Positions 1 to 19,049 of a DNA stretch of 20,000 nucleotides are shown here, piece after piece (position 1 is the first letter of the stretch; every line of letters begins with the position of its first letter). Under the pieces are notes generated by a model that ran no database searches, was not told the DNA's origin, and saw only the letters and a list, made by a program, of their open reading frames with translations. The stretch comes from an uncultured virus (IMG/VR IMGVR_UViG_3300012920_000027) (lineage: Duplodnaviria; Heunggongvirae; Uroviricota; Caudoviricetes), in IMG/VR virus record IMGVR_UViG_3300012920_000027. One strand, 5' to 3'. A program made the translations under genes and the position numbers.

Positions 1-74
1 ACCTCATCACAGTTCATCGTACTTGAGTACAGTTGCCATGATTCAGCGTCCATGTTGCAGGTGTAGTGTTCCAT
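1..74 (-). CDS. Hypothetical protein, 5' part only (MEHYTCNMDAESWQLYSSTMNCDE...), runs off the window
   Basis: ATG at 74 fused to ACCGCTC; frame open to the window edge. Confidence 0.7.
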   Translation of the reverse strand, partial: MEHYTCNMDAESWQLYSSTMNCDE

Positions 75-90
75 GAGCGGTAGTTGACCC

Positions 91-315
91 TCACAAGTCC
101 TTTTCCTTTACCTCTTGACGAACTGTGATCACAGCCCTTTCTCTGTTCAGCAAGAGACGCAAATCGCTCAAAGAGATTTGCAGGGGGATGTAGGTCATCC
201 CGTCCTGTGCAGTGTAGGTATCACAGTCCCGAAGGGCGTTCCTGTTCAAGGAAAGCTTGAGGCTGTCTTCGGCAGTCGAGCGTCGGGCGTATCCGGTTAG
301 GATGTTTTCAGTCAT
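91..315 (-). CDS. Conserved hypothetical protein, 74 aa, resembling small Thermoplasmatota/MGII proteins
   Basis: ACCGCTC-ATG start; the pattern GYxRxS...LKxS...Y.xxDGxxYxPLxISL...ERAV is recalled from Thermoplasmatota hypotheticals (not searched). Confidence 0.8.
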   Translation of the reverse strand: MTENILTGYARRSTAEDSLKLSLNRNALRDCDTYTAQDGMTYIPLQISLSDLRLLLNRERAVITVRQEVKEKDL

Positions 316-329
316 GAGCGGTTTGACCC

Positions 330-590
330 TCAGTTGGGTCGGTAGCAGTTCGATGGTTCTGTGACCACACGAATGCGGGCGTCAGCCATTGACTCAAGCG
401 TGACGGCTTCACCGTCAATCTCAATCACGGTGGCAAAATCGCCTGCTTCGAGGGTCTTGTTGCCATTTGAGATTGTTGCGTAGACGGTGACGAAGTCGCC
501 CTCTTCCAAATCGTAGGTGTTTTGCGTGTAGGTCTGTTCTGCTGCGGATTCCACCAGCTTGCGCAGGTGGGCGTTCACTCGGTTTCCCAT
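330..590 (-). CDS. Hypothetical protein, 86 aa, possible SH3/KOW-like beta-barrel
   Basis: Motif start; LEEGDFVTV...LEAGDFATVIEIDGEAVTL beta-rich pattern. Confidence 0.8.
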   Translation of the reverse strand: MGNRVNAHLRKLVESAAEQTYTQNTYDLEEGDFVTVYATISNGNKTLEAGDFATVIEIDGEAVTLESMADARIRVVTEPSNCYRPN

Positions 591-602
591 GAGCGGTTGG
601 CT

Positions 603-1106
603 TCAAAAGCCTTCTATGGAGACGATCCATTCAATTTCAGCCTCGGTAAGTGCTGCAAAACCTTCAGGGTCGTCCTTCTCAAAGCGAATCTTGGTTTCTT
701 CGGTGTTGGGTTCCCATTCGACCTTCTTGCGTGGGTCGTTTTCTGAGAGTTCATCCCATTCTCCATAGGTGAGACCATGGCGATCCACTCGCCAATCAGG
801 TTCACCACCGATTTCATCGCCCCACATGTCGTCTTCTCGAAGGTCCCACCAATGGCTTCCCAGCTCGATGGCGACATTCCTCACCGTAAAGCCTCGGCTT
901 TTGATAAGGAATTCAAGCCATTCTGAGTCCGGGGTCCACTTGCAGGCCCATTCCAAAACCAAGGTGTTTTCATCGGGTCGTTCTACAATCATGTAGTAAC
1001 CCCGAGGTTCCTTGTTCAGTTCGTTCTGCAGGGTGGTTATCGCCAGGGCGCTTGTTTCAAGCCCTGTGTGGGTAATCTTCGTGTAATTGTGACACCAGTT
1101 TGCCAT
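603..1106 (-). CDS. YubB/DUF1281 (Api92)-like ferredoxin-fold protein, 167 aa
   Basis: Starts MANWCHN (family begins MPNWCxN); later WACKWTP resembles the family F.TAW.PP; start set at the ACCTCTC-ATG variant. Confidence 0.65.
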   Translation of the reverse strand: MANWCHNYTKITHTGLETSALAITTLQNELNKEPRGYYMIVERPDENTLVLEWACKWTPDSEWLEFLIKSRGFTVRNVAIELGSHWWDLREDDMWGDEIGGEPDWRVDRHGLTYGEWDELSENDPRKKVEWEPNTEETKIRFEKDDPEGFAALTEAEIEWIVSIEGF

Positions 1107-1195
1107 GAGAGGTGCTCTCCACCACCGATTCATGGTGGGAGTTCAAACCGCATTCCAAATTTGGTCCAGGGCGGCATCTGGAGAGCGAGCGGTTT

Positions 1196-1570
1196 TCAGA
1201 CCAAGCCGGCTTCTTGCCAGTATTCCCTGATCTTTGCGATTGTTTCCTCGGTGTCCTCCGGGATTGGGAGGTCGAGGACGATTTGCTTCACATGGTCCGG
1301 ACGACGGAGCACGATGTCTTCCCAAAACGGGCTTTCGATCAGTACCTCCTTGCTTCCGGTTTGGTGATAGTCGGGGGCCATGCTACGGATTCCCTCTTCG
1401 GGATGGACGAACCAGGCTTGGATGAAGTAGCCGTACATTGGGCTCTCTGCTCCAAGCAATCCGCCGGTATCAAACCCGTAGCTCAAGGTCCATTCTCCTG
1501 TTACTTCCATGTCGTCGATTGAGCTGTGTGCTGTGCGATCTTCATGGGTGATTCCTTTGAATCGTGACAT
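1196..1570 (-). CDS. Hypothetical protein, 124 aa
   Basis: Motif start; tiles with neighbours. Confidence 0.85.
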   Translation of the reverse strand: MSRFKGITHEDRTAHSSIDDMEVTGEWTLSYGFDTGGLLGAESPMYGYFIQAWFVHPEEGIRSMAPDYHQTGSKEVLIESPFWEDIVLRRPDHVKQIVLDLPIPEDTEETIAKIREYWQEAGLV

Positions 1571-1578
1571 GAGCGGTG

Positions 1579-1827
1579 CTATAGGCGGTATCCTTCCTTG
1601 TCGTGAAATGCATGGAATTCGTATCCAGCTTCGATTTTTTCAACGATTGTGAAAATATCGGTGACTTCAAGGAGCAAGTAGCAATACTTCTTTTGGCGGT
1701 CGGACCACAATTCGGATGGTCCGTTTCGTTCAGAGTAGATCAATCCTATCGTTCCTGTGCCTTCCGGCCATTTTCCTTTCGGAGGATAGGCCCAAGCTCG
1801 ATTCCCGAACTCGAAATCACTTACCAT
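1579..1827 (-). CDS. Hypothetical protein, 82 aa
   Basis: Motif start; stop 1 nt from the next motif. Confidence 0.85.
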   Translation of the reverse strand: MVSDFEFGNRAWAYPPKGKWPEGTGTIGLIYSERNGPSELWSDRQKKYCYLLLEVTDIFTIVEKIEAGYEFHAFHDKEGYRL

Positions 1828-1835
1828 GAGCGGTA

Positions 1836-2309
1836 TCAGCCTTCGTAATCGTTCTCAAGGAACGAGGCGACGGCCTTCAACCCTTCTTCGATTGAAGGGG
1901 CTTCATTGACTTCAAACAACACAGCATCGTGCAAAAAAGGACGAATCCGCTGCTTTGCTTCATTGGTCAACTGTAACCACAGGTGGTCCGGAATTATGGG
2001 CTCTCGTTGCGCGTAAAGGCCGATGAAGTATTCCATTCCTGTTGGGGTCGCTGTTGGGTGAATCCTGAGATGACCGAACTTGCTGATTTCTTCCATCAGC
2101 TTGTTGAGGTCGGGCAACAGGTTGTCCCAGACGACCTTCTTGACAGTCATGCGAAGGTCTTGGTCTGCATCGAAGATCCATGTTTCGTCTCCATTGTTTT
2201 CAATTTCGGCGTAGTCTGTGAGGTCTTCATCCTCAACCTTCCATTGGTCGTTGAGGGTATCGAAGAAGTGTCCAGCCATAGCGCCGTCATATCCGTACTT
2301 GATGTGCAT
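1836..2309 (-). CDS. Hypothetical protein, 157 aa (MHIKYGYDG...)
   Basis: Start moved to the motif ATG at 2309. Confidence 0.85.
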   Translation of the reverse strand: MHIKYGYDGAMAGHFFDTLNDQWKVEDEDLTDYAEIENNGDETWIFDADQDLRMTVKKVVWDNLLPDLNKLMEEISKFGHLRIHPTATPTGMEYFIGLYAQREPIIPDHLWLQLTNEAKQRIRPFLHDAVLFEVNEAPSIEEGLKAVASFLENDYEG

Positions 2310-2317
2310 GAGCGGTC

Positions 2318-2542
2318 TCAACCGTACTCCCAATACCAGTTCTCTCCTGCGGAGGCGGCTTCGGCAGCACGGATAACAAGGTCGAATTTGCGTTCAAGTT
2401 CAATGATTCGTTCCTCAAGTTGCTTCAGGAAAGCGAGCCCTTTGTCGCTGTCCCAAGCCTGTTTGAGATCGTGAAGCAATTTCCCTTGCTGAATGAATCG
2501 CCACTCGAGGTCATCGATGGCTTCTTCAGTCGTTTTGTTCAT
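2318..2542 (-). CDS. Coiled-coil hypothetical protein, 74 aa
   Basis: ACCTCTC-ATG start; LKQLEERIIELERKF heptads. Confidence 0.8.
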   Translation of the reverse strand: MNKTTEEAIDDLEWRFIQQGKLLHDLKQAWDSDKGLAFLKQLEERIIELERKFDLVIRAAEAASAGENWYWEYG

Positions 2543-2777
2543 GAGAGGTGTTCCAGACCTGCACCTTGTATCGTCCACCAAGAATGCTGTCCGTGAAGGT
2601 GGATTCTACCGATTGGATGTGGTCTGGGTTCTTCGAGAGCACATTCGTCAGCGTCTGCATGGTCGTACCATGCCTCGTCGTGTTGTTGATGTGCTCAAAA
2701 ATAGCGGTTGTGGAGCTTGCGCCCTCGGAATTGAGGTACTTCACAACCAGGCTCAGGAGTCTCTTTGTTTTGCCCAT
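2526..2777 (-). CDS. DUF3860-like winged-helix putative DNA-binding protein, 83 aa
   Basis: T.xIFEHINxTxRHGTTxQxLxNVLSK...ILGGxYxVxxW matches my recollection of DUF3860 from marine Group II Euryarchaeota; the motif sits 16 nt upstream of this ATG. Confidence 0.75.
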   Translation of the reverse strand: MGKTKRLLSLVVKYLNSEGASSTTAIFEHINNTTRHGTTMQTLTNVLSKNPDHIQSVESTFTDSILGGRYKVQVWNTSHEQND

Positions 2778-2813
2778 AAACGGGCATAAGCGGGAGCGGT
2801 ATTTCAAAACATC

Positions 2814-3713
2814 TCATGACCATTCTGTGATGCGTGAGCCCTTGGGCTTGTTGAATCCAAGATCGTTCTTCAGCCGATCAAAGCCGGCGGTCAGGAACTC
2901 CTTGGACATTTCAATCCCAACGGCGAAACGGTCAGTCAGCATTGCTGCCATGCCCAGGCTGAAAGACCCTGCAAATGGGTCAAGCACCGTGTCTCCAGGG
3001 TTTGTGGAGAACTTCAGGAGCTCGATTAGCAGTTCCACGGGTTTCTCGGTTTGATGCACCTTGTTCTTGCCCATCACTCGGGCGTGCGTAAGGACATCGG
3101 GAATCGAGTTGTTGATCCTGCGTCGCTTCCCCTTGGAGAAGAACAGGATGAGTTCGTGGCGTGGTCGTCCGTTGTAGCCAAGGGAGATGACCTTCTTGTC
3201 CCAGACCCATTGAGAGTTGAATGTGAATCCAGCATTCTCAGCGAGTTTGACCTGGTTGTAGATGTAGTCAATCGTGTCTGCCTTGGCGGCGGGCATGAAA
3301 CAGAAGAAGTGGCCGTTTGGCTTGAGAACGCGGTGCATTTGCGAGAACAGGTCATGGTCGAGGTCTTTGGTCTCGAAGTCCCATCCCTTGTTCAGATTGC
3401 GCTTGCGTGTCGTTCCTCTTTGCATCTGGTCATTGAGCACAGCGTAGGGTGGATCGGTGATGATGGCGTCAAAGGAATCGTCCTCAAAATCAGCCAACAC
3501 CTCCCAGGCATCACCCTCGATGAGGGCACATTGGGAGTCACCAACGGTTGCGATGTAGACACCGCGCCCTACGCGCTTGAAGCATGAATTGATGTTCTCA
3601 TTGAGCCTACCTCTGATGGTGGACTCCTTCTCCCCAGGGAACGCCTCGTAGATCTCCGAGAGGTGATGGGCGTTCTTGAGAAGAAAGTCAATCAATCTGT
3701 CTTTCAAAGTCAT
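2814..3713 (-). CDS. Site-specific DNA methyltransferase (N4-C/N6-A, beta class) with N-terminal HTH-like extension, 299 aa
   Basis: Catalytic IITDPPY precedes H.TEKPVEL and SAM-binding GDTVLDPFAGS, which is beta-class order; no cognate restriction endonuclease recognised nearby. Confidence 0.93.
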   Translation of the reverse strand: MTLKDRLIDFLLKNAHHLSEIYEAFPGEKESTIRGRLNENINSCFKRVGRGVYIATVGDSQCALIEGDAWEVLADFEDDSFDAIITDPPYAVLNDQMQRGTTRKRNLNKGWDFETKDLDHDLFSQMHRVLKPNGHFFCFMPAAKADTIDYIYNQVKLAENAGFTFNSQWVWDKKVISLGYNGRPRHELILFFSKGKRRRINNSIPDVLTHARVMGKNKVHQTEKPVELLIELLKFSTNPGDTVLDPFAGSFSLGMAAMLTDRFAVGIEMSKEFLTAGFDRLKNDLGFNKPKGSRITEWS

Positions 3714-3721
3714 GAGCGGTT

Positions 3722-3994
3722 TCAGTCAAGGAAAAAATCCCTGAGGTCATTCGGATGCCATCGGGGAAAATTGGGACCAGGATTGAGGACTTTTAGGCAT
3801 TCAGCAATGAGTTCCATAACCCTCTTGTCTCTTGATTCAATCTCCTCAGGCGTCAAATCGTTGTCTTCACGACTTCCCAGTCCGAGAGCCCACCACAAGT
3901 AGTACAATCCGTGATCGTCGCTGTTTGCTTCCCAGTAACGAACACAAGTCCAAATTGCGTTATGTTGGCTTGGAGTCAGTTCGATTCGTTTCAT
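3722..3994 (-). CDS. Hypothetical protein, 90 aa
   Basis: Motif ATG at 3994. Confidence 0.8.
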   Translation of the reverse strand: MKRIELTPSQHNAIWTCVRYWEANSDDHGLYYLWWALGLGSREDNDLTPEEIESRDKRVMELIAECLKVLNPGPNFPRWHPNDLRDFFLD

Positions 3995-4001
3995 GAGCGG
4001 T

Positions 4002-4385
4002 TCAATTGATTGGAGCCGGCTTGAACTCACTTGGACGGGGTTCGTTGTGCTTCCCAGAGCGAGCTTGCCGGATCATCCAGCTTTCGGTTCCGACCAGAGC
4101 TGAAACCCAATCACGAGGCGACGGGATGAACCCGAAGTCTTCGAGAAGGTGTTGTTCTCCGATCCATTGAGTTGGGATGGTCTGTCCGTCGCTGTTGGTC
4201 AATGACGGCCCGAATACCTCAACCATCGTGTTGATGCCCTGGCTGTGGTGCCTGAACATTCGATGGCGGAAGTCATGGATGTGCTCCTTCGGGGCGTCAA
4301 ACCATTCGTGGATGGCGAGGTAATCCTCGACTTTTCCTCCGTACTTTTGGACAGAACCCATTGCATGGTGTAGTGCGTGACTCAT
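4002..4385 (-). CDS. DUF6915-like His-rich protein, 127 aa
   Basis: HxxHHA.S.KYGG..EDYLAIHEWFD...DFRHR..RHH..GI...FG...TNSDG..IP...IGEQH..EDFG.IPS..DW signature. Confidence 0.8.
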   Translation of the reverse strand: MSHALHHAMGSVQKYGGKVEDYLAIHEWFDAPKEHIHDFRHRMFRHHSQGINTMVEVFGPSLTNSDGQTIPTQWIGEQHLLEDFGFIPSPRDWVSALVGTESWMIRQARSGKHNEPRPSEFKPAPIN

Positions 4386-4401
4386 GAGCGGTAGTGAGGT
4401 T

Positions 4402-4839
4402 TCACTGGTTCTTCCATTGAGATCCCTCGGGTTGCTTATTGGGCTCCCATGTCCCGTATGCGAGACTGTCGTCTCTGAAGTCAATCCAGAACCCTTGGCC
4501 AGACGCGATGCCATCAAAGATGGAGTCGTCGATCGGCAGGCACTCCACGAAGTCATCGCCACCTACAGCTTCACGACTCTTTTCCCAGCAATCGGGGATT
4601 TCATCAGGATCGTAACCTTGGGCGAAGATGGCTAAGGACCATTTGTTGTCGCGTTCATTCACCAGTTCTTCGGTCGAACCGGACATGATGTAAATGCCTC
4701 TGTCCTTCACAAAGTCAATGTGTGCCGTGTCCTGCATCTCTGGCTGTACGCCATATGGATCAGTCCACTTGGTAGCGTTCTTTGTGTGTTCAAAGATTGT
4801 CCTCAAATTGTCTGAGGGCACAAAAATCAGTTGGGTCAT
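4402..4839 (-). CDS. DUF3085-like protein, 145 aa
   Basis: FVKDRGIYIMS...AIFAQGYDP...W...R..VGGDDFVE signature of DUF3085, a mobile-element family. Confidence 0.8.
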   Translation of the reverse strand: MTQLIFVPSDNLRTIFEHTKNATKWTDPYGVQPEMQDTAHIDFVKDRGIYIMSGSTEELVNERDNKWSLAIFAQGYDPDEIPDCWEKSREAVGGDDFVECLPIDDSIFDGIASGQGFWIDFRDDSLAYGTWEPNKQPEGSQWKNQ

Positions 4840-4846
4840 GAGCGGT

Positions 4847-5137
4847 TCATGCGTCCTCGTAGACGCAATTGTCCATGTTTCCGGACTGATACTCTTCAAT
4901 CAGAAGGAATGTAGCTTCGTACAAAACCGTGTGGTCCATCATTTCCCAACACATTTCATTCATTTGAATGATGTTCTTGGCGAGCTTGTTCGGCAAGCTC
5001 TGTGTGATTTCCAGCAGTTGATTGTACCATTCGGGGTCTCTTTCTTTGATTGGGTCAACTTCGTAGCCGTTGAAGACAAACTGCCTCGGCTTCTGTGTGA
5101 ATTCGTTAGCTGTGTCAAGCCGTTTATTCATGGTCAT
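4847..5137 (-). CDS. Hypothetical protein, 96 aa
   Basis: Motif start; its stop abuts the next motif. Confidence 0.8.
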   Translation of the reverse strand: MTMNKRLDTANEFTQKPRQFVFNGYEVDPIKERDPEWYNQLLEITQSLPNKLAKNIIQMNEMCWEMMDHTVLYEATFLLIEEYQSGNMDNCVYEDA

Positions 5138-5144
5138 GAGCGGT

Positions 5145-5345
5145 TCAGGGCTTTCGTACCTCGGTGACGGCGTGGACGATTTCAATGTCCATCTCCCAGC
5201 CACAGTTGGAGCATGTGTAGGTGTAGGTGGTTGCATCACCACCCTCCTGCTCTAGCGTTCCTTCTGCTTGGCAATGTGGGCATTGTCCGCCCCATAGTTC
5301 TCCGGGGGCGAGAGTGTCTCCTTCTTCGTAAGAATGTCGGGTCAT
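5145..5345 (-). CDS. Zn-ribbon protein, 66 aa
   Basis: CPHC...CSNC; motif start. Confidence 0.8.
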   Translation of the reverse strand: MTRHSYEEGDTLAPGELWGGQCPHCQAEGTLEQEGGDATTYTYTCSNCGWEMDIEIVHAVTEVRKP

Positions 5346-5352
5346 GAGCGGT

Positions 5353-5658
5353 TCATCGGCGTTGGACAAAGTCCATCGTCGATTGCCAATACGAGATGAC
5401 TCCCTCTGGCCTCTCGGCCCATTCCTGTTCGGAAGGTGCTTCAATCATGTCGTAGCGCCAGTCCCAGAAAAGTTCGAGGTCAAAGTCCCCACCAAGTTTG
5501 GGTGGCCGTGCGATCTCCCAAAGGTTCACATCCAAGAACCCAGGGATTGTTTTCTCCCAGTATTCCTTCGGACTTAGCGGTGTATCAACCAAGTAAGGTT
5601 CGTTTTGGTCCCCATCTCCTGTCGTTTCAACGATGTAAAATCGCGATTCGGTGTTCAT
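5353..5658 (-). CDS. Hypothetical protein, 101 aa
   Basis: Motif ATG at 5658 (MNTESRFY...). Confidence 0.8.
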   Translation of the reverse strand: MNTESRFYIVETTGDGDQNEPYLVDTPLSPKEYWEKTIPGFLDVNLWEIARPPKLGGDFDLELFWDWRYDMIEAPSEQEWAERPEGVISYWQSTMDFVQRR

Positions 5659-5666
5659 GAGCGGTC

Positions 5667-6764
5667 TCAGAGACGGCGTCGGACAGCGTCCCTCAGGGCT
5701 GTGAGCCTCTGCAGGTATTCGTCCAAGTCCGAAAGGGTCTCTTCGTAGGCGTCCACGATTTGCTCGATCTTGCGTTCGACCTGCTTCTCCTTCACAAAGA
5801 TGGAAGTCATGGTCTTTGGATCGTTGTCGTGGACAACAGGGACTGGCCCCGAGTAGCCGCCTCGCTTGTTCTTGCGTAGAGGCTTGATGGTTCTCCCATC
5901 CGTGTCTACCATTGGAGGCTCCACAGGGGGTTCCAGTACATGTTCTGTTTCGACCTGGTCCGACCATCGCAAATCAAGCGTTGCGGAGGTGTCGAGTTGT
6001 TCGTCCGTCACAGGTTCGGGCTCTGCCTCTGGCTCAGGCACCACGGGGGGTTCTGGCTCAGGGATTTCAACCGATGGAGATTCCGTTTCAATCACCGGCT
6101 CTGGCTCAAGTTCCACTTCGGGAACAGGCTCAGGCTCTTGCGTTGGTTCTTCCACGGGCTCCGGCTCGGTTTCCGGCTCGGTTTCTGGGTCCTCAGGGTA
6201 GAGGATGTCCAGAGATTTCTTGACGGCTTCAGCCTCTTCAGGGGTAAGGTCCTCTTCGGATTCCTCCCAAAAGTCGTCGGCTTCTTCCTCTTCCTCGTCG
6301 TCTTCTTCCTCAAGGAGGGACGCGAGGTCACCTGGTTCCTCAAGCTCATGTCCGAGTAGCTCTTTCATGGCGAGGATCGGGTCTTGGTCGTTCTGAAGTG
6401 CTTGAGTCGCTATATCCCACAGTTCTTCGCCCCGAAGGCGCTCTTCTGCGGTCAAATCGGCCATGAACTCGGTCACGGTATCGATGAGTTCGGGTTCAGG
6501 ATCAGTGTCCTTTTCCGGAGTCTCTGTTCGGTCGTAATAGCTCACGAGGCGTTCGTTGAGGACGCGGGCCATCTCAATCATTCGAGAAGTCCCTGCGGGG
6601 AATTCGTCAAACGCGCCTTCTGCGACAGCGTCTTCAAGCACAATTTTTGCGAGCTTACGCTTCTTGCGAATGCGTCTCTTCAGTTCTTCATCTGCTTCAG
6701 CCTCCTCTCGCGAATTCATTCGTTCAAGGATGCTGTCGATGTCTTGCATCATTTCTGCTTGCAT
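5667..6764 (-). CDS. Very acidic protein with (EP)n low-complexity linker and C-terminal coiled coil, 365 aa
   Basis: Motif start MQAEMM; EEEDDEEEEE and EPEPEP tracts. Confidence 0.88.
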   Translation of the reverse strand: MQAEMMQDIDSILERMNSREEAEADEELKRRIRKKRKLAKIVLEDAVAEGAFDEFPAGTSRMIEMARVLNERLVSYYDRTETPEKDTDPEPELIDTVTEFMADLTAEERLRGEELWDIATQALQNDQDPILAMKELLGHELEEPGDLASLLEEEDDEEEEEADDFWEESEEDLTPEEAEAVKKSLDILYPEDPETEPETEPEPVEEPTQEPEPVPEVELEPEPVIETESPSVEIPEPEPPVVPEPEAEPEPVTDEQLDTSATLDLRWSDQVETEHVLEPPVEPPMVDTDGRTIKPLRKNKRGGYSGPVPVVHDNDPKTMTSIFVKEKQVERKIEQIVDAYEETLSDLDEYLQRLTALRDAVRRRL

Positions 6765-6771
6765 GAGCGGT

Positions 6772-7044: not shown

Positions 7045-7051
7045 GAGCGGT

Positions 7052-12311: not shown

Positions 12312-12320
12312 GAGCGGTGT

Positions 12321-12548: not shown

Positions 12549-12564
12549 GAGCGGTGTGGGGATT

Positions 12565-13104: not shown

Positions 13105-13117
13105 GAGCGGTTCTCGA

Positions 13118-13384
13118 TCAACAAATCGAGTTCCATGCGTCTGCGATGTCCATGGCTTCTTCGTTGGACACCGCGATTGTCTTGCCGTTTCTCGCCAAGC
13201 CAATGATTGCACCTCCAAGTGACCAGCGCTTGGCTTGATCTTGAGCGAACTTGAGGTACTTCTTGCGCTTTTGACGGTTGTTTGATTCGATCATCCGAGC
13301 GGCGTGCTCGAATGTTTCTGTGGTTCGAAGGTAGTTGATGGATCCGGTCTTGTGATTGACCTTCCATGGTAGCTTTCGAGACAT
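13118..13384 (-). CDS. Basic hypothetical protein, 88 aa
   Basis: Motif start. Confidence 0.8.
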   Translation of the reverse strand: MSRKLPWKVNHKTGSINYLRTTETFEHAARMIESNNRQKRKKYLKFAQDQAKRWSLGGAIIGLARNGKTIAVSNEEAMDIADAWNSIC

Positions 13385-13402
13385 GAGCGGTTGTTGCTTT
13401 CA

Positions 13403-14287
13403 TCACACACCGAAGGTGTCGAGAAGTTCCTTCCAGTCTGCCTTGTTGGTTTCGGCGAAGAGTCTGGTTCGGATTGCTCGGTCCAAAGACCGGAATGTGA
13501 CGGGGTCCTCTTCCGAAGCCACTTCCTTCAGGTGAGCCAACACTTCTTGTTTCATTGGCATCGACACCCTTGGGTGGATGTTCGGTAGGACCTTTTGCAT
13601 GCGTTCCAGAACTTCAGTCCCAGTTAGAACGACGGGGACAAAGAAGCTACGGTCGATTAGGGGTTGGGGCATGTCCTTTTCCTCCTTGTTGGTGATGAAC
13701 ACCACCTGTCCTTTGAACGCGAACTTCCGTGGCAGTCCATGTTGGTCTGCCCAACCGGAGTTCCAGCTGATTGTTCGTTCGGAGTAGGAGTCAAGTGCAG
13801 CCTTGCAGAGTTCCATCATGGTCTCGTTTCCCCAGATGTCCACATCGTCAAGGACAAGCACGCCGCCATCTTTGCGTTGATGCATGGCGGTGTAGAGTCC
13901 TGTGGGGGCCATGTGACCTGCGACCCAAGTGTAGCCCGTGGGGCCTTCCTTGTCTTCGACTAGGCCTGCTGCCTTGAGGATCTGCTTGACCGTGTAGGTC
14001 TTTCCAAGTCCGCCCGTTCCACAAATGATCATGGAGGGGACGAATTTCTTGACGACCATTTTGATGATCTGTTCCATCAGTTCGAATCGTTTGTTCACAG
14101 GGAGTTTGGCCATCCGCTTGGTCACGACCTCGTTTCTGGCTTTGCTCTTCTGTTGCTTCTTTCGCCGCTTTGCTGCTTCCACAGCGTCAATCACCTCCTT
14201 GTCGGGGGTGGGTTGAGGGCGATAGGTTGATTCTGGCATTGGTTGTGAATGATTTCCTCCATCGGAGGTTTTCAGTTCAGGTTGCAT
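13403..14287 (-). CDS. AAA+ ATPase of phage type, 294 aa
   Basis: Walker A GTGGLGKT, Walker B VLVLDDVD, sensor-1 VVFITN, arginine finger LIDRS. Confidence 0.9.
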   Translation of the reverse strand: MQPELKTSDGGNHSQPMPESTYRPQPTPDKEVIDAVEAAKRRKKQQKSKARNEVVTKRMAKLPVNKRFELMEQIIKMVVKKFVPSMIICGTGGLGKTYTVKQILKAAGLVEDKEGPTGYTWVAGHMAPTGLYTAMHQRKDGGVLVLDDVDIWGNETMMELCKAALDSYSERTISWNSGWADQHGLPRKFAFKGQVVFITNKEEKDMPQPLIDRSFFVPVVLTGTEVLERMQKVLPNIHPRVSMPMKQEVLAHLKEVASEEDPVTFRSLDRAIRTRLFAETNKADWKELLDTFGV

Positions 14288-14312
14288 GAGAGGCAAGATG
14301 GGGTAGAGCGAA

Positions 14313-14350
14313 CGAAAGCCCCACACCGCAGATGCGGTATGGGGCTTTCG
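14313..14350. terminator. Long near-perfect hairpin upstream of the AAA+ gene (terminator-like or processing stem)
   Basis: CGAAAGCCCCA-CACCGCA-GA-TGCGGTA-TGGGGCTTTCG. Confidence 0.5.
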
Positions 14351-14370
14351 AACACGCTTGCGTGAGAGGT

Positions 14371-14548
14371 GAGTGCAATTCAGGGTCGCTACCAGGCCTG
14401 CTACCTAGGCTGCACTAAGCCATGCCTGTGACCCTCTGCCGTGCCCGGGACACCTTTCGGGTCGCCGGATAAACAGGGGGTTGCCGTTCCAGTAGGCTCA
14501 CAATCCCTACCCCGTTCGGAGGGGTCTGAGGGAAGATGATTGGGCATT
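14371..14548 (-). ncRNA. Candidate structured RNA, copy A of a tandem pair
   Basis: Shares ATGCC/GGCAT closing stem, TGGAAC-loop hairpin and 3' GGTA(A)GCAGG...GCGA.CC block with copy B; compensatory changes between copies. Confidence 0.6.
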
Positions 14549-14578
14549 CTACCAATGGGGGACTTGTGGGTTCTCCAT
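14549..14578 (-). CDS. 9-codon ORF MENPQVPHW*
   Basis: ACCTCTC-ATG start; same length and TGG-TAG-AATGCC end as the ORF at 14791. Confidence 0.45.
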   Translation of the reverse strand: MENPQVPHW

Positions 14579-14589
14579 GAGAGGTGAGT

Positions 14590-14790
14590 GGTTTTTTCGG
14601 TTCGCCATCCTACCTGCTTACCGAAGGGACCACCATCCCATGCCTTGAGCCCCGTTTTCTAAGGGGCCGCCCGTTCCATTTGGGCGCGCATAGAGCTCGA
14701 GTGGTGGCTCGGCCCATGCGGATTACCGCAATAGCTCCGGGGGCTATCGCGGATAATCACTGCTTGGGCTGCTCAAAACGCTGTGGCATT
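14590..14790 (-). ncRNA. Candidate structured RNA, copy B of a tandem pair
   Basis: As copy A; additional stem CCGCGATAGC/GCTATTGCGG with a G-U pair. Confidence 0.6.
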
Positions 14791-14820
14791 CTACCAGCGG
14801 ATGATGTAGTTGATCTCCAT
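14791..14820 (-). CDS. 9-codon ORF MEINYIIRW*
   Basis: Exact ACCGCTC-ATG start; TGG-TAG-AATGCC end. Confidence 0.45.
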   Translation of the reverse strand: MEINYIIRW

Positions 14821-14840
14821 GAGCGGTTTGACCTCAGCGA

Positions 14841-14901
14841 GGCCACCCCGGGGCGCCGTAGCGCCCCGGGGGGCGGTGTTCAGGTCAGTGACCTGAAGGC
14901 C
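14841..14901 (-). repeat. Palindrome plus C(UACG)G hairpin element, copy 1
   Basis: CAGGTCA-N-TGACCTG followed by CCCGGGGCGC-TACG-GCGCCCCGGG, just 3' of a CDS. Confidence 0.85.
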
Positions 14902-14915: not shown

Positions 14916-15827
14916 TCAGACATCCACGACCACGAGGGTCGGGAAGCCGGCGTCGAGTTGCAGGTCGACGAAGTACTGCCGGATGCGGGCGTTGCAGTCA
15001 AGGGCACGCCTCCACGAGTTCCCCTGGCCAGGGAACTGTGCGACCGGGAATCCACGCACGCCCGAATCGACGAGCGTTTGGTGTGCGTCGTTGTCGGCCG
15101 TGTTGGGCGTGGTTCCTCGTCCGGTGAGGAGGAAACCGGGGTTGATGCCGTTTCCATCGCTGCGTCGCAGGGACATCTTCCGGTTGTCGCCGTTGATGTC
15201 TGCGATGATCTGGATGAATCCGTGCTGGGCCCGGCTGCGCTTGTTGTCCTTGCGCTTCTCCTGTCCCGCCTTGGTGTACGGGATGCTGCGGAGGCGAAGG
15301 GCTGCGTTGACCAGCAGGCAGTAGCCGTTGACCAGGACCTTGTCGCGGGAACTCGAGAGTTGCCACTTGTTCAGTCCGTTGTAGTCGGGAGTAGGCCAAT
15401 GAGTGAGGCCTTTGCTGTCCCAACCGTCCTCAGGTGCCGGCAACATCTCAACGAAGATGGCGTGATCCATGTCGGCCATTTCGGTGGTGTAGCGGATTTT
15501 GAGCATTCCTGCCTCCTTGAGGGGCGTGAGGGCGCTGACGATTGCATCAATGTCGGCCTGAGTTTTGATGGCGTCGTTGATGGTTTTTCCGTCTGCGTCT
15601 GTGTGCTTCACGAGGAAGAGAGGATTGTCGTCCTTGCTCATTTCCATGTAGGCGAAGCGGGTGCCACTGGCAGTCTTGAACTGCGGGTGGGGCTTGCCTT
15701 TCGTGAAGACCGTCTCGACGGTGACGCCGTTCAGGTGCTCCTCTGCCGTGTGGATCGCTTGCGCGAAGTCCTCCACGGTGTAGGTCAGGTTGTTGGTCTG
15801 GTTTTCGGGGTATGCTGCGGTTTGCAT
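14916..15827 (-). CDS. Hypothetical protein, 303 aa, strongly codon-biased and possibly highly expressed
   Basis: ACCACTC-ATG start (MQTAAYP); C/G-ending codons; stop-free antisense frame. Confidence 0.88.
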   Translation of the reverse strand: MQTAAYPENQTNNLTYTVEDFAQAIHTAEEHLNGVTVETVFTKGKPHPQFKTASGTRFAYMEMSKDDNPLFLVKHTDADGKTINDAIKTQADIDAIVSALTPLKEAGMLKIRYTTEMADMDHAIFVEMLPAPEDGWDSKGLTHWPTPDYNGLNKWQLSSSRDKVLVNGYCLLVNAALRLRSIPYTKAGQEKRKDNKRSRAQHGFIQIIADINGDNRKMSLRRSDGNGINPGFLLTGRGTTPNTADNDAHQTLVDSGVRGFPVAQFPGQGNSWRRALDCNARIRQYFVDLQLDAGFPTLVVVDV

Positions 15828-15834
15828 GAGTGGT

Positions 15835-16116: not shown

Positions 16117-16144
16117 TGTGAGCGGTTCATCGGACAAGTCCGAA

Positions 16145-16447
16145 TCAGCGGTATGCGCCCATTGCCAGTCCAGGCAGGCTCGAGGCCTCGCCCTTCTGCG
16201 ACTTGATACGCAGGCTCGACAGGATGCTGTGAAGCACCTTGTTACCATCGAAGCTGATGTTGCCATCGGCTTGGATCTCCGACTCGAAGTCGAAGCAGCC
16301 AGTGTCTGCGAGGTCCTTCTCGCAGAGCGAGCAAAGGAATTCGGGAGCACGGGCAATGGTCAGAACCTTGCGATGTCCCACCCCCTGGAACTCGGGGGCG
16401 TTCAAATCGGCTTGGCAAATGGCGCAGGTACAAATTTTGGTTTGCAT
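16145..16447 (-). CDS. Zn-finger protein, 100 aa
   Basis: CTCAIC...CSLC; GCCGCTC-ATG start. Confidence 0.8.
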   Translation of the reverse strand: MQTKICTCAICQADLNAPEFQGVGHRKVLTIARAPEFLCSLCEKDLADTGCFDFESEIQADGNISFDGNKVLHSILSSLRIKSQKGEASSLPGLAMGAYR

Positions 16448-16460
16448 GAGCGGCTTACAT

Positions 16461-16526
16461 GACCACCCTGGGCCGCCGTAGCGACCCAGGGGGTGTTGTA
16501 CAGGTCAATGACCTGGGACGAAGGTC
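16461..16526 (-). repeat. Palindrome plus C(UACG)G hairpin element, copy 2
   Basis: GACC...CAGGTCATTGACCTG-TACAACACC-CCCTGGGTCGC-TACG-GCGGCCCAGGG-TGGTC. Confidence 0.85.
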
Positions 16527-16530: not shown

Positions 16531-16890
16531 TCAAAGCTCGATGGCGCCTTCAATGGCCGAAGCCCTTGATTCCCTCTTGATTGCGCTGCGGCGGTGCCGC
16601 ACTTGGCGTTCGTTGGGGAAGGCCTCTGGGCAGTACTTGTCTACCCAGTCCTTCATCATCAGAACCGATTTCAGATGTCCAAGGCTGGTGCCAGAGACCA
16701 CTTCGTTCCCGTCCCAGTTGTCGAAGAAGCGGTGAAGCGCTTGTTCGGTGCGACTGGAGATGCGGGGTGGTGCTCGGCCACGGACCTTGTGGATCCAGCC
16801 CTCCCACGAAAGCACCCAAAGGGGCACCTTCGTATCGTCGCTGGTCAAAATCTGGTTGTCGGTTGGCATTGTTTTACGAGTGTAGAACAT
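16531..16890 (-). CDS. Basic hypothetical protein, 119 aa
   Basis: ACCTCTC-ATG start. Confidence 0.8.
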   Translation of the reverse strand: MFYTRKTMPTDNQILTSDDTKVPLWVLSWEGWIHKVRGRAPPRISSRTEQALHRFFDNWDGNEVVSGTSLGHLKSVLMMKDWVDKYCPEAFPNERQVRHRRSAIKRESRASAIEGAIEL

Positions 16891-16963
16891 GAGAGGTCTC
16901 GTCTTTCCGAAGTGTCATCCAGTTTTTGCGGTCCTGGAAGCGACCGCCGGCAACCGGTGAGAG

Positions 16964-17239
16964 TCAGAGCTCCACCATCGCCTCAAGGTTCAGCTTAGGC
17001 GCCGCCTTCTTGCGGTTGCCTTTGCTGTTCTTCTTGCGGCGGTTGGATTTGGAGGACTTCTTCGTCTGCTGTGCCTTGTGCGCTGCGATCATCTCGCTGC
17101 GAATGGCGTTCACAAGCTTCGGGTCAAAGTCCCCAGAGAAGGTGATGTTTCCGACGGTGGTGGTGTTATCCACCTCCTGTCGGGGCTTGCTCGTCTTCTT
17201 CTTGCGGTTCACGGTGACGGTGCGGGTAAAGCGGGTCAT
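16964..17239 (-). CDS. Lys/Arg-rich protein, 91 aa, putative nucleic-acid-binding
   Basis: GCCTCTC-ATG start MTRFTR; NRKKK and KKSSKSNRRKKNSKGNRKK tracts. Confidence 0.8.
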   Translation of the reverse strand: MTRFTRTVTVNRKKKTSKPRQEVDNTTTVGNITFSGDFDPKLVNAIRSEMIAAHKAQQTKKSSKSNRRKKNSKGNRKKAAPKLNLEAMVEL

Positions 17240-17416
17240 GAGAGGCACCACCCCTGCCGGGGGTTGGCCCCCCCCAGAGCAGGGGGGGCCAGTTTGACTC
17301 CGCACGGTAGAACGAGACGGAGCCGGAGGCTGCGGCGGGGTGGCGATGCGTCGGTGCGCGGGGGCCCGTTGGATGAACTGCAATCAAGCTAAGAGTGGGC
17401 TAGACTCCAGGCTGCT

Positions 17417-17887
17417 TCACGAAAGGTCCTCGGTGTAGTCCCAGCCATCGTAGTGGCTGAGGTCGTAGGAGGCGTCGTCGTCGTCGGCGTCGTCAAGGAC
17501 ATCTTCGACCTCGTCCGGGTTGCCGGTGGGACCGGCGGGGATTCCGTCGAGGGAAGTGGTACCGATGCGGTCACGGCTGTGGAGGTTTTCCTCGGCAGAC
17601 TCGAGAGACCACCCGAAGGCGGTGGCGAGTGCCATGAGGTGTTCCGGTGCGTGCGACCATCGGCCGTCGTAGACGATGTTTGCCATGTTGAGCGCTTCCA
17701 AGAGAGTGCGTTCGACTTCCATTCGGGACATGTCTCGCATGTCTGCGTAGATGTCGAAGGCAACTTCGAGTGCGTTGTCGAGGCTGGAGATGTCAGCGAA
17801 GATGCTGAGGAAGGAGGTGATCATCACCTCCAAAGCTCCAAGTGTTCGTTCGGCGGTCAGGCTGATTGGGTTGGTATGCTGTTGCAT
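17417..17887 (-). CDS. Acidic hypothetical protein, 156 aa
   Basis: ACCACTC-ATG start; D/E-rich tail. Confidence 0.85.
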   Translation of the reverse strand: MQQHTNPISLTAERTLGALEVMITSFLSIFADISSLDNALEVAFDIYADMRDMSRMEVERTLLEALNMANIVYDGRWSHAPEHLMALATAFGWSLESAEENLHSRDRIGTTSLDGIPAGPTGNPDEVEDVLDDADDDDASYDLSHYDGWDYTEDLS

Positions 17888-17921
17888 GAGTGGTTGGCGA
17901 GGGTGTTCCTTCCCTCATACC

Positions 17922-18319
17922 TAAGGCCCACAGGGGCCTTAGGGCGTGTTCGTGAGTGGTTGTGTGCGGTGACCGACTTCCCAGAGAAGTCGGCTCCTTG
18001 ATCGGCATTTTGTTGTCCTGCTCAGGGGGATCTATCCCCTTTGCGACATCCGGATGCTCTGGCATCCTCCTGTCCTACGGACTGGACTTAGCAACATCGA
18101 AGAGCTTGCTAGGCTCAACGAATCGGCTTTGTCCACAAAATGAGTCTCATAAGGGTGAGTTGTGACCTTGGCAGGACTCCTCGCTCAAACGGCGGGCGTC
18201 GATGCCTCGTTAAGGCCACAATACTCGGTAAATTACGAGTGGTGGGTGGAGAAAGCACCCTTTCGGGTCTTCCTCACTTCTAAGGTCCACAGGGGCCTTA
18301 GGGCGTGTTCGTGTGTGGT
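17922..18319. repeat. Two ~39-bp direct repeats with an internal hairpin (17922-17960 and 18281-18319)
   Basis: TAAGG(C/T)CCACAGGGGCCTTAGGGCGTGTTCGTG(A/T)GTGGT. Confidence 0.85.
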
Positions 18320-18329
18320 GATGTGAAAG

Positions 18330-18401
18330 GACCCACCTGGGTCGCCGTAGCGACTCAGGGGGTGTTGTACAGGTCAGTGACCTGGAAAAGCGGCGAAGGT
18401 C
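18330..18401 (-). repeat. Palindrome plus C(UACG)G hairpin element, copy 3
   Basis: GACC...CAGGTCACTGACCTG-TACAACACC-CCCTGAGTCGC-TACG-GCGACCCAGG-TGGGTC. Confidence 0.85.
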
Positions 18402-18409
18402 ACGAAGTC

Positions 18410-19027
18410 TCAGTCTTCATCGGCATAAATGTTTGATAGGATCGTGTGGTGTTCCTCCTTGCTGCGGTGCTTGTCGAGCTCCTTTTGCAAGAAGTGTAAC
18501 TCGTGCTTCGTCATGTCGTGGAGGGTTCGCTCCTCGTCGATCTCTTGCTCGAGGTCTGCATGGTGTTCTGCAGTCTTGAATCGAGTGGCTTGAATCATCT
18601 GGATGATGACTTCCCATTGTTCGAGGTCGTATTCGATGCGGCCGAGCGGAGTCACAACCGTGACGCCAATTGGCGTGTCCTTGTTCAGAAGGTAGTCGAT
18701 GTACTGCTGGTTCTCGGTGAAGTATTCGTGTGCTTCTTCGCGCAGTTTGTCGATGAGGGCTGAAAGGCTGTTGCACTTGTCGGCGAGCTCTTCGGGGGAC
18801 TTGCCCCCTGTTTCTGCGTCCTCATGGGAAATCAGAACCTTTCGCGTGATGCGATGCTCGGTTGGTGCGGTTTCAATCCAGCGAGGTACCCAGGGTTCCT
18901 CAACAGGTAGTGGGTACCGGTGGTAGACCTTGATGATGCCATCAAAGTTCATGATCAGTCCCTCGTCGTTCCCGGTCTTGTCTTCCTCGGAGCCCGGGCT
19001 GGCTCCGTCGTGGTTGGCTTGTGCCAT
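18410..19027 (-). CDS. Hypothetical protein with C-terminal coiled coil, 205 aa
   Basis: Start MAQANH follows ACCACTC-AC-ATG; the track's longer N-terminus overlaps structured non-coding sequence. Confidence 0.8.
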   Translation of the reverse strand: MAQANHDGASPGSEEDKTGNDEGLIMNFDGIIKVYHRYPLPVEEPWVPRWIETAPTEHRITRKVLISHEDAETGGKSPEELADKCNSLSALIDKLREEAHEYFTENQQYIDYLLNKDTPIGVTVVTPLGRIEYDLEQWEVIIQMIQATRFKTAEHHADLEQEIDEERTLHDMTKHELHFLQKELDKHRSKEEHHTILSNIYADED

Positions 19028-19049
19028 GTGAGTGGTGTTTGTGATTGTG

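Follow-up and report, generated by a model that had tools for sequence, protein, structure and literature searches.

ACCGCTC-ATG, a short motif fused to the start codons of a cassette-like gene block in an uncultured marine virus, as a candidate start-of-unit expression signal

The window analyzed here is a 20,000-nt stretch of DNA from an uncultured virus of the class Caudoviricetes (IMG/VR record IMGVR_UViG_3300012920_000027), in which nearly every gene start carries one short motif, ACCGCTC, fused to the ATG. It takes in most of the block of accessory, early-type genes that this marine or estuarine virus carries. A scan for CATGAGCGGT with at most one mismatch gave 43 matches, 33 exact and 10 with one mismatch, all 43 on the plus strand as written, so that ACCGCTC-ATG reads on the minus strand; 200 dinucleotide shuffles gave a mean of 1.65 matches and a maximum of 6, and none of the 200 reached 43. 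The CAT of the motif is the first in-frame ATG of a minus-strand open reading frame (ORF) that directly abuts the motif. With the ATG fixed and up to two mismatches allowed there are 48 sites, a few of which (17635, 2787, 18952) are chance or internal matches. A sequence-only reading of the window had counted 33 exact and 12 near-exact copies by eye, which is essentially right, and the eight places where it saw TGA-ACCGCTC-ATG (3992, 4837, 5135, 5343, 6762, 7042, 9468, and 10353) are all eight of the 7-nt stop-to-ATG gaps. The coordinate at which it ended the array, 19036, is a near-copy with a 2-nt spacer, ACCACTC-AC-ATG, whose ATG lies at 19027.

The window was compared with two genome-sized relatives, with a related locus, L133, and with contigs of four sequencing runs from four studies (X2, X3, X4, and X10), which were aligned to it; X4 includes a 71-kb contig at a depth of ~40. 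G001, a viral contig of 127,570 bp, is classed as complete and has direct terminal repeats; C65, more distant, is a 128,049-bp contig of G002, binned in a metagenome-assembled genome (MAG) labelled as an archaeon, and its RNA polymerase (RNAP) A'' protein is 46% identical to that of G001. The motif-led ORFs of the window, from the head of the block downward, are as follows.

18410..19036, minus strand: first gene of the block, 205 aa from the ATG at 19027, ACCACTC-AC-ATG after a CA-rich stretch; true start uncertain
17417..17894, minus strand: ACCACTC-ATG, ORF of 156 aa (motif scan; G001 homologue)
16964..17246, minus strand: GCCTCTC-ATG (two mismatches), ORF of 91 aa (scan with up to two mismatches)
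16531..16897, minus strand: ACCTCTC-ATG, ORF of 119 aa (G001 homologue aligned from residue 1)
16145..16454, minus strand: GCCGCTC-ATG, ORF of 100 aa (G001 homologue aligned from residue 1)
14916..15834, minus strand: ACCACTC-ATG, ORF of 303 aa, conserved head protein (motif scan; homologue comparison)
13403..14294, minus strand: GCCTCTC-ATG (two mismatches), ORF of 294 aa, AAA+-like (phrog_1250)
13118..13391, minus strand: ACCGCTC-ATG, ORF of 88 aa (comparison with G001 and C65)
12982..13111, minus strand: ACCGCTC-ATG, ORF of 40 aa; cassette absent in X2, X3, X4, and L133
12565..12970, minus strand: ACCGCTC-ATG, ORF of 132 aa (comparison with C65)
12321..12555, minus strand: ACCGCTC-ATG, ORF of 75 aa; extra 130-nt unit of L133 at this motif
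11919..12318, minus strand: ACCGCTC-ATG, ORF of 130 aa (comparison with G001)
11624..11909, minus strand: ACCGCTC-ATG, ORF of 92 aa (motif scan)
11481..11622, minus strand: ACCGCTC-ATG, ORF of 44 aa; homology to L133 ends exactly at this motif
11396..11477, minus strand: GCCGCTC-ATG, ORF of 24 aa, a doubtful gene (motif scan)
10617..11079, minus strand: TCCGCTC-ATG, ORF of 151 aa, AAA_33/PNK-like ATPase (Pfam, PHROG)
10363..10600, minus strand: ACCGCTC-ATG, ORF of 76 aa (motif scan; homologue comparison)
10167..10362, minus strand: ACCGCTC-ATG, ORF of 62 aa, zinc-ribbon-like (Pfam scan; homologue comparison)
9630..10095, minus strand: ACCGCTC-ATG, ORF of 152 aa (motif scan)
9478..9628, minus strand: ACCGCTC-ATG, ORF of 47 aa; cassette absent in X4 (joint 9467->9619)
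8880..9477, minus strand: ACCGCTC-ATG, ORF of 196 aa; G001 homologue at a distant place (18360)
8697..8862, minus strand: ACCGCTC-ATG, ORF of 52 aa (motif scan; homologue comparison)
8498..8723, minus strand: ACCACTC-ATG, ORF of 72 aa (phrog_1933); the only motif of the window that an upstream ORF overlaps
8244..8487, minus strand: ACCGCTC-ATG, ORF of 78 aa (motif scan; homologue comparison)
7786..8242, minus strand: ACCGCTC-ATG, ORF of 149 aa (motif scan)
7535..7778, minus strand: ACCGCTC-ATG, ORF of 78 aa; replaced in X4 and X10 (joint 7532->7798, with 17 other letters in X4)
7052..7532, minus strand: ACCGCTC-ATG, ORF of 157 aa (comparison with C65)
6772..7051, minus strand: ACCGCTC-ATG, ORF of 90 aa (motif scan; homologue comparison)
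5667..6771, minus strand: ACCGCTC-ATG, ORF of 365 aa, conservation limited to its C-terminal part
5353..5665, minus strand: ACCGCTC-ATG, ORF of 101 aa; cassette absent in X4 and X10 (joint 5341->5655)
5145..5352, minus strand: ACCGCTC-ATG, ORF of 66 aa, zinc-ribbon-like (Pfam scan; homologue comparison)
4847..5144, minus strand: ACCGCTC-ATG, ORF of 96 aa (motif scan)
4402..4846, minus strand: ACCGCTC-ATG, ORF of 145 aa, DUF3085 (Pfam; homologue comparison)
4002..4392, minus strand: ACCGCTC-ATG, ORF of 127 aa, DUF6915, match from residue 3 (Pfam, PHROG)
3722..4001, minus strand: ACCGCTC-ATG, ORF of 90 aa; cassette absent in X2 and X3 (joint 3709->3991)
2814..3720, minus strand: ACCGCTC-ATG, ORF of 299 aa, N6/N4 DNA methyltransferase (Pfam, PHROG)
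2318..2549, minus strand: ACCTCTC-ATG, ORF of 74 aa (motif scan; homologue comparison)
1836..2316, minus strand: ACCGCTC-ATG, ORF of 157 aa (motif scan)
1579..1834, minus strand: ACCGCTC-ATG, ORF of 82 aa; cassette absent in all four runs (joint 1567->1825)
1196..1577, minus strand: ACCGCTC-ATG, ORF of 124 aa (comparison with C65)
603..1113, minus strand: ACCTCTC-ATG, ORF of 167 aa (motif scan; homologue comparison)
330..597, minus strand: ACCGCTC-ATG, ORF of 86 aa (motif scan; homologue comparison)
91..322, minus strand: ACCGCTC-ATG, ORF of 74 aa (motif scan; homologue comparison)
1..81, minus strand: ACCGCTC-ATG, ORF running off the window (motif scan)

Homologues of 39 motif genes of the window were sought in the two relatives and found for 25 in G001 and for 18 in C65. 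Most of the window-versus-relative alignments start at residue 1, on the motif ATG in both genomes, and the DUF6915 and phrog_8143 family matches begin at residue 1-3; by this evidence the motif ATGs are real gene starts. Only 4 of 38 window ORFs passed the Pfam cut-off (N6_N4 methylase, AAA_33, DUF3085, and DUF6915) and 6 of 38 have a PHROG match, so that the earlier description of the genes as unrelated is a fair one. The same reading had seen no purine-rich Shine-Dalgarno (SD) sequence, and this is borne out by counts of GGAG, GAGG, or GGGG at positions -18 to -4: 5 of 40 window sites and 10 of 101 G001 sites carry one, whereas among crude gene starts in the portion of G001 that uses SD sites 26 of 45 do (Fisher p = 2.5e-9). 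Gene callers trained on SD motifs would miss such a lineage-specific start signal.

Conservation around the motif spans only -8 (A in 55-60%) to +3, with none further upstream, and the first ~20 coding nucleotides after the motif ATG are A-rich and G-poor. When the blocks of the three genomes are pooled, the base after ACCGCTC is A in 228 of 233 copies (AT in 212, AC in 16), G in 4 and C in 1, GTG or TTG follows in none of the 233, and the spacing to the start codon is 0 nt in 212 of them; the way the motif is defined makes the C at -1 invariant. Base composition predicts 1.7-5.7 occurrences of the 7-mer per strand. The gap between the upstream stop codon and the ATG is 6-8 nt at 56 of 107 G001 junctions and 7-8 nt at 16 of 42 window junctions, and an upstream ORF overlaps the motif or the ATG at only 3 of the 107 and 1 of the 42. 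None of the reading frames meets a stop codon within the motif. In G001, 58 of 108 motif genes start with ATGA. Sigma70-like promoters are depleted in the window (4 versus 9.4 +/- 2.6 expected), and terminator-like sites are at chance level, with one strong hairpin at 10146-10121.

With the entire window as query, megablast found no match among 50,697 phage records, and the 365-aa protein found no relative in viral_contigs; it was the 294-aa protein, 77-82% identical in relatives, that led to G001. A scan of viral_contigs with the 14-mer TGAACCGCTCATGA returned at least 123 stretches, nearly all of them single chance matches, and among the matches listed only G001 has several. G001 holds 101 copies of ACCNCTCATG, all on the reverse strand between 11.9 and 56.7 kb of its 127.6 kb, and none on the other strand. 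In the 1.5-Mb bin that contains C65, 95 of the 100 motif places listed are on C65, at 24.7-68.2 kb, and the other 5 are at the chance level given by a reversed-pattern control (5). The motif is present in 6 of 6 metagenome loci. There are about 100 copies per genome, confined to one co-oriented block of ~45 kb, and the motif is unchanged across lineages whose RNAP subunits are 46% identical and whose GC content ranges from 43% to 54%.

Outside the block, the structural and large genes of G001 have GGAGG or GAGGT at normal spacing and no motif. The sequence-only reading had asked whether the motif stands equally before structural or host genes: the structural and large genes use SD sequences, and the genes of the archaeal bin are unmarked. 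The motif is therefore specific to the element and to one gene class within it, since the structural and large genes are SD-led and the places off the contig are at chance. DNA runs containing parts of the window come from marine, estuary, and river metagenomes of 14 studies; among the runs listed, no RNA run contained window positions 3500-13400. An assembly artefact was ruled out, as independent assemblies from several studies share the motif, and so was a CRISPR array, the units being genes with homologues. A restriction or methylation site as the primary function would leave the fusion to the ATG without explanation. The 10-mer strings occur in the literature, among the matches listed, solely in unrelated texts, and a literature search of main texts found no description of promoters or leaderless transcripts for this viral group.

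The block genes behave as cassettes. Of the 37 joints between window and run contigs, 15 were listed, and 5 of these are exact motif-to-motif skips of a single gene, where 10-12 letters are shared by the two sides: 1567->1825 (all four runs), 3709->3991 in two (X2, X3), 5341->5655 in two (X4, X10), 9467->9619 in one (X4), and 12959->13101 in three (X2, X3, X4). Three of the other listed joints touch a motif on one side and seven touch none. The chance that both ends of a joint lie within 2 nt of a motif start is ~1e-4 per joint. Whole units come and go in the same way in independent pairs of loci: a 79-nt motif-to-motif unit in G001 is absent from L138, L133 is missing a 141-nt unit of the window and has an extra 130-nt unit that the window is without, and homology between L133 and the window, as between L136 and G001, stops at a motif and gives way to unrelated sequence. 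Two pairs were left out of the counts because their members are identical, L137 with G001 and L134 with L135. Between G001 and C65, 48 of 105 block genes are shared, all of them motif-led; their positions are weakly correlated (Spearman 0.57, or 0.35 without the collinear head), and adjacency is kept in 4 of 47 neighboring shared pairs. A caveat is that such tight packing forces any viable indel to break near a motif; even so, the seamless one-period junctions point to crossover within the repeat itself.

Direct repeats of 10-12 nt can by themselves yield such deletions, through slippage or microhomology. With ~100 identical direct copies at gene boundaries, recombination or slippage could remove, add, and reorder whole genes seamlessly, and because a direct copy sits at every boundary, the block could evolve as cassettes do without integron machinery. 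This would be a simpler account than a dedicated recombination system, which the observed exchanges do not need.

Not every motif copy heads a protein-coding gene. The window has two paralogous motif-led units without a large ORF, with counterparts at 52155-52419 of G001 and 1486-1730 of L133. Each consists of a 9-codon ORF ending TGG/AGG-TAG-AATGC, followed by ~200 nt with the shared blocks GGTAGAATGC, CCAATGGAACGG, and GCAAGCAGG.AGGATGGCGA.CC; the last unit before the AAA+ gene closes with a strong hairpin and then TTTCGTTCG, and related strains have small indels within these units. They are likely to be an unnamed non-coding RNA family that was duplicated in the window. At gathering thresholds Rfam found nothing in the window and only a tRNA in the G001 head region, and a permissive Rfam scan of 14250-14900 gave sub-threshold chance rows alone. 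Where the block begins in G001 and C65, a CA-rich leader of 15-24 nt separates ACCGCTC from the ATG, and a conserved CAGTATGGAYTGGAA with the CA-rich leader is found at the block heads of the window, G001, and C65. After the last block gene in G001 and C65 there is an extra copy, ACCGCTC-ACCC, that runs into a strong hairpin. Upstream of the block, ~122-nt tandem repeats (five copies in G001, at 57.5-58.1 kb) hold motif-like copies without an ATG; this array could be a replication origin or a promoter array. Because the motif heads 9-codon-ORF units, precedes a CA-rich leader, and recurs after the last gene, it marks the 5' edge of units that begin with A, mostly ORFs, and is not tied to translation. 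The units, lone copies, and repeats of the window are the following.

19841..19996, no strand: start of the ~122-nt tandem array, each unit with a motif-like ACCACTC-ACC; the window ends inside it
17911..17948, also 18270-18307 and 19799-19836, no strand: 38-nt hairpin repeat, common to G001
18330..18385, minus strand: 56-nt double-hairpin repeat, copy 3 of 3
16461..16516, minus strand: 56-nt double-hairpin repeat, copy 2 of 3
16120..16126, minus strand: ACCGCTC copy followed by AC, not ATG, directly after a TGA
14841..14896, minus strand: 56-nt double-hairpin repeat, copy 1 of 3, with a motif close downstream
14586..14827, minus strand: non-coding-like unit A, ACCGCTC-ATGGAG, 9-codon ORF, ~200 nt without ORF
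14296..14585, minus strand: non-coding-like unit B, ACCTCTC-ATGGAG, 9-codon ORF, strong hairpin at its end
10121..10146, minus strand: terminator-like hairpin of 11 pairs, then a T run, 33 nt before the next motif-ATG
2794..2800, minus strand: ACCGCTC copy followed by CCGCTTATG, a degenerate doublet
1114..1193, minus strand: motif copy that no ATG directly follows (ACCGCTC-GCTCTCCAGATGCCGCC...), in a short conserved unit with a counterpart at G001 44321

The short unit at 1114-1193 belongs to a conserved type of ~85 nt, found in G001 at ~44236-44321, that starts ACCGCTC-GCTCTCCAGATGC.GCC..TGGACC; an ATG lies 9 nt after the motif, and the unit may be either a micro-ORF or a small RNA. Each of the three 56-nt repeats is composed of one hairpin whose GC-rich stem carries a TACG loop and a second one, CAGGTCA..TGACCTG, and two of the three lie 6-13 nt upstream of motif genes at the block head; they are candidate promoters, attenuators, or processing signals. 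A hairpin element of 34-38 nt (..GGCCCACAGGGGCC..) is common to the window and G001 (L141 2135, 3530, and 4085), and one G001 copy stands directly before the ATG of a 363-aa gene that faces away from the block. GC content rises from ~0.51 at 1-13 kb to 0.57-0.61 toward the block head (14-20 kb), where the motif variants ACCACTC, ACCTCTC, GCCGCTC, and GCCTCTC are concentrated and where the sole genes collinear among the three lineages are found.

G001 has a second start class. A box, AAACGGYTGAAC, precedes a set of long ORFs without SD, its end lying 13-16 nt from their ATGs, and also both tRNA genes of G001, there at exactly 15 nt; copies lie at 5205-5232, 6249-6276, and 6357-6385 of locus L141, among others. 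Because its distance is fixed to both ATGs and tRNA 5' ends, the box is read as a transcription signal, and its position would mean that the virus places start codons at or very near RNA 5' ends. The box is partly palindromic (TTCAAnnnnTTGAA), and downstream of it there is often a motif-like AACC-N1-2-CTC, which in the tRNA-Lys copy is an exact ACCGCTC-A.

The gene content of G001 bears on its lineage and host. An 829-aa protein is of the archaeal RNAP A''/Rpo1C type (TIGR02389, 1e-32; Pfam Rpb1 domain 5, 5e-20), with best PDB matches that are archaeal, then eukaryotic RPC1/RPB1, and bacterial beta' far weaker. To our knowledge, an archaeal-type RNAP subunit is unusual for archaeal viruses; an RNAP alignment against viral_contigs found, besides G001, only RPB1 genes of giant-virus MAGs. 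G001 also encodes a thermosome subunit (1e-100), a RusA resolvase, a serine recombinase at 72020-72817 (phrog_95, 4.6e-64; CcrB-like, 1.7e-30), a protein of 2,458 aa that combines DNA-ligase and TFIIS zinc-ribbon domains, and two tRNAs, of which the tRNA-Lys matches a tRNA from a different contig of the C65 bin at 85% identity over 69 nt. Among its other products are a 252-aa FtsK/HerA-like ATPase and giant ORFs of 2,458, 1,596, 1,478, and 1,191 aa. No DNA polymerase family was detected in the scanned G001 proteins, which include several giant ORFs without a family match, and no major capsid or portal family was recognized in G001.

Philosof et al. (2017; PMC5434244) describe 'group D' elements, related to Marine Group II viruses, with genes for a thermosome, a resolvase, and an archaeal-type RNAP A; that work had no closed genome for the group and left its nature undetermined. 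All three of these genes are found together in G001. The virus thus resembles group D in gene content, and G001, with its terminal repeats, would be a closed genome of that type. Our reading of the host as archaeal, held with moderate confidence, draws on the archaeal-type A'' and thermosome, the co-binning, and the tRNA 85% identical to a bin tRNA. Against it, a homologue lies in a bin with a bacterial label, so that binning labels are weak evidence. Viral contigs of the lineage occur in cellular MAGs, the C65 bin being labelled archaeal and the bin of protein P0003 Marinimicrobia; such bins hold a whole viral genome, either as contamination or as a host-linked element.

Because the block genes are without any other expression signal, the motif itself must be an expression signal or part of one. 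The reading that we favor, with moderate confidence, is that the 11-nt (A)ACCGCTC-A(TG) is a start-of-unit expression signal of one gene class and yields leaderless mRNAs by way of an initiator-type promoter. The RNA 5' end would be fixed at the A after CTC, which in about nine of ten copies is the A of the AUG, and each block gene would be expressed as a leaderless mRNA that needs no SD site. Transcription would initiate at a minimal promoter with a pyrimidine at -1 and a purine at +1, read by the archaeal-type RNAP of the host as reprogrammed by viral factors. An RNA 5' end at this A is suggested by the invariant C|A, the obligatory AUG, the absence of SD, the A-rich downstream sequence, the non-coding-like units, and the second transcriptional start class. 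The depletion of sigma70-like promoters and the viral transcription genes, for the RNAP A'' subunit and a TFIIS-type zinc ribbon, also speak for this reading. As expected of an initiator, C stands at -1, A stands at +1 in 228 of 233 copies, and AUG is never replaced by GUG or UUG. Of the four alternatives in the sequence-only reading, RNA cleavage and a per-gene transcription start, either of which would give leaderless mRNAs, fit best; these two are not separable from the letters, and we favor the promoter over endonucleolytic processing.

Several points weigh against the promoter. The RNA 5' end at A is inferred from sequence alone, as are leaderless translation, the preference for a promoter over processing, the recombination mechanism, and the archaeal host. 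Some 100 tandem promoters with gaps down to 6-8 nt and almost no terminators would bring massive read-through, and a GC-rich -7 to -1 is unusual for a region that must melt. No TATA box or TFB-recognition element (BRE) was seen before block genes in a profile that ends at -25, such elements being expected at about -26; the information content is at most 0.16 bit at -25 to -20 in the window and at most 0.22 bit at -25 to -11 in three sets, with no AT-rich peak. Without TATA/BRE a standard archaeal pre-initiation complex is not indicated. The gene-start profile of the co-binned archaeal MAG (125 kb, 115 crude ORF starts) has too much noise for an SD or a TATA signal to stand out and speaks for neither side. 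A single RNAP subunit was recognized among the G001 proteins, and a TFIIB-like G001 protein of 363 aa was dropped as evidence, its Pfam match being below the cut-off and a PDB sequence match lacking. Upstream ORFs also end directly ahead of the motif much more often than compaction by itself would call for, a pattern that cleavage or translational coupling would demand and a promoter would not. A bolder combination, in which an initiator-only promoter of 10-11 bp is read by host RNAP with the viral A'' to give ~100 monocistronic leaderless mRNAs with neither TATA/BRE nor SD, the polymerase possibly working in stop-start mode along the block, and the same site is the designated crossover for cassette exchange, seems to us improbable. 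If true, it would be a minimal self-contained unit of expression and mobility, undescribed for any virus.

An unlikely competitor is RNA processing: a few long precursors would start from head promoters in the hairpin repeats or the 122-nt array, and a sequence-specific endoribonuclease of the virus or the host would cut before the A and release leaderless mRNAs and the small units. Processing explains all that the promoter reading explains, and it accounts better than initiation for the extra copy after the last gene and for the avoidance of overlap (3 of 107 junctions in G001, 1 of 42 in the window), because a cut inside an ORF gives a non-stop mRNA. A precursor requires genes in strictly one orientation and without interruption, as they are in the block, and the true promoters could lie in the conserved structured repeats at the block head. 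MazF-type RNA interferases with seven-base specificity are known, but no nuclease candidate emerged from Pfam, PHROG, and NCBIfam scans of the window and G001 proteins. The 303-aa head protein, considered as a reader of the motif, had no Atlas match, 10 homologue clusters, an AlphaFold2 model with a mean predicted local distance difference test score of 57, and no fold match at E <= 0.001. The terminator-like hairpin at 10146-10121, moreover, would interrupt a precursor if the polymerase heeds it. Less probable again is a translation signal on a polycistronic mRNA, which the ribosome or a viral or host factor would read and which, without any need of an SD, would bring the next AUG into the P site for initiation or termination-reinitiation. 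The tight stop-start geometry (6-8 nt at 56 of 107 G001 junctions, 7-8 nt at 16 of 42 in the window), the missing SD, and the A-rich downstream sequence suit it, yet overlapping stop/start pairs, which are best for coupling, are avoided, positions -7 to -1 are where no known contact with rRNA or factors selects starts, and copies of the motif are also found ahead of a CA-rich leader, after the last gene, and at the start of units that have no plausible ORF. Pairing with 16S rRNA, which the sequence-only reading had put forward as a check on an initiation signal, is no better than for shuffled motifs. The motif is pyrimidine-rich, unlike the purine-rich SD; its best pairing is 6 of 7 both with E. 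coli 16S (97.8% of shuffled motifs do as well) and with the 3' 786 nt of the co-binned archaeal 16S (82% of shuffles), which ends in the canonical GGATCACCTCCT; these are a stand-in and a co-binned rRNA and may not be the host's.

Very improbable, in our view, is dedicated gene capture, with the 10-mer as the core site of a site-specific recombinase acting at the ATG and expression as a secondary matter. The part of this idea that stands is the gain, loss, and replacement exactly from motif to motif in natural strains, with permuted gene order and breakpoints at the motif; there are n+1 motif copies for n genes, and G001 does encode a serine recombinase (72020-72817). The integron-like machine is not supported: Pfam and PHROG scans found no integrase among 38 window ORFs, and the serine recombinase of G001 is encoded ~15 kb away from the block, in a region of SD-led genes. 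Apart from CATG the site lacks dyad symmetry, and an attC-like site is absent, because often just 6-8 nt separate stop and ATG. A pure recombination scar would not explain the expression of genes without SD, which would still need a signal where no other is present, and the restriction to one strand and the invariant A point to expression.

If the favored expression signal and the cassette behavior both hold, ten bases would suffice to give any ORF expression and mobility, the most compact natural gene-cassette head known to us, in a poorly known and globally distributed marine virus lineage. The motif bears on early gene expression in viruses of uncultured archaea and can be tested in metatranscriptomes. 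Being short and defined, it also lends itself to in vitro studies of how archaeal-type polymerases select start sites and of leaderless translation.

Among known systems, the closest in behavior is the promoter-early stem-loop (PeSL) element of T4-type phages, which Arbiol et al. (2010; PMC2839356) describe upstream of ~50 small, mostly ORFan genes in hyperplastic regions. In that account a PeSL consists of an AT-rich region, sigma70 -35/-10 boxes, a stem-loop terminator, SD, and ATG, and its copies recombine to give insertions, deletions, and replacements between related phages. As here, regulatory repeats before small ORFans double as shuffling points that drive indels and replacements, and it is by analogy with PeSLs that recombination between direct repeats appears the simpler account. 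The motif differs in being 10-11 nt long, GC-rich, and ATG-fused, with no sigma70 boxes, SD, or stem-loop at most junctions, which leave no space for one (hairpin repeats lie only at the block head, plus 10146-10121), and its host is probably archaeal. Comeau et al. reportedly treated the PeSL cassettes of T4-type phages in 2014. Integrons share with the block a one-orientation array of unrelated small ORFs, gain and loss at boundary sites, and n+1 sites for n genes; attC sites are imperfect inverted repeats of tens of base pairs, whereas here there is neither IntI nor attC, the site abuts the ATG and serves expression, and the element is viral and class-specific.

Start-fused promoters are known in viruses, as in the poxvirus late promoter TAAATG, which is fused to the start codon. 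The late promoters of phiKZ (T-3ATG+1) and AR9 (AACA-N6-TA/G) are short start-overlapping promoters of phage multisubunit RNAPs (PMC7598289, PMC5312081). The motif resembles them as a short element overlapping the start, with no upstream conservation and a virus-borne RNAP component; it differs in its unrelated, GC-rich sequence, its density of one per gene with no spacing, and its single RNAP subunit, and it is known from sequence alone. The archaeal initiator described by Fouqueau et al. (2018; PMC7289017) has a pyrimidine at -1 and a purine at +1 and overlaps the start codon where transcripts are leaderless, which agrees with C at -1, A at +1, an element lying over the start codon, and an obligatory AUG; cellular promoters, however, use TATA/BRE at about -26, unseen here, and the conserved part is 7-8 nt instead of 2. 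Nijveen et al. (2012; PMC3575422) report highly similar promoters recurring before unrelated genes as putative mobile promoters, but those are longer upstream regions scattered over genomes, whereas here a 10-mer is fused to ~100 consecutive ATGs. The motif, without sigma70 boxes, stem-loop, SD, attC, or IntI, is not a member of the PeSLs, the start-fused viral promoters, or the integrons, and what sets it apart is its minimal size, its invariance across deep divergence, its density of ~100 per genome, and its likely setting in an archaeal virus.

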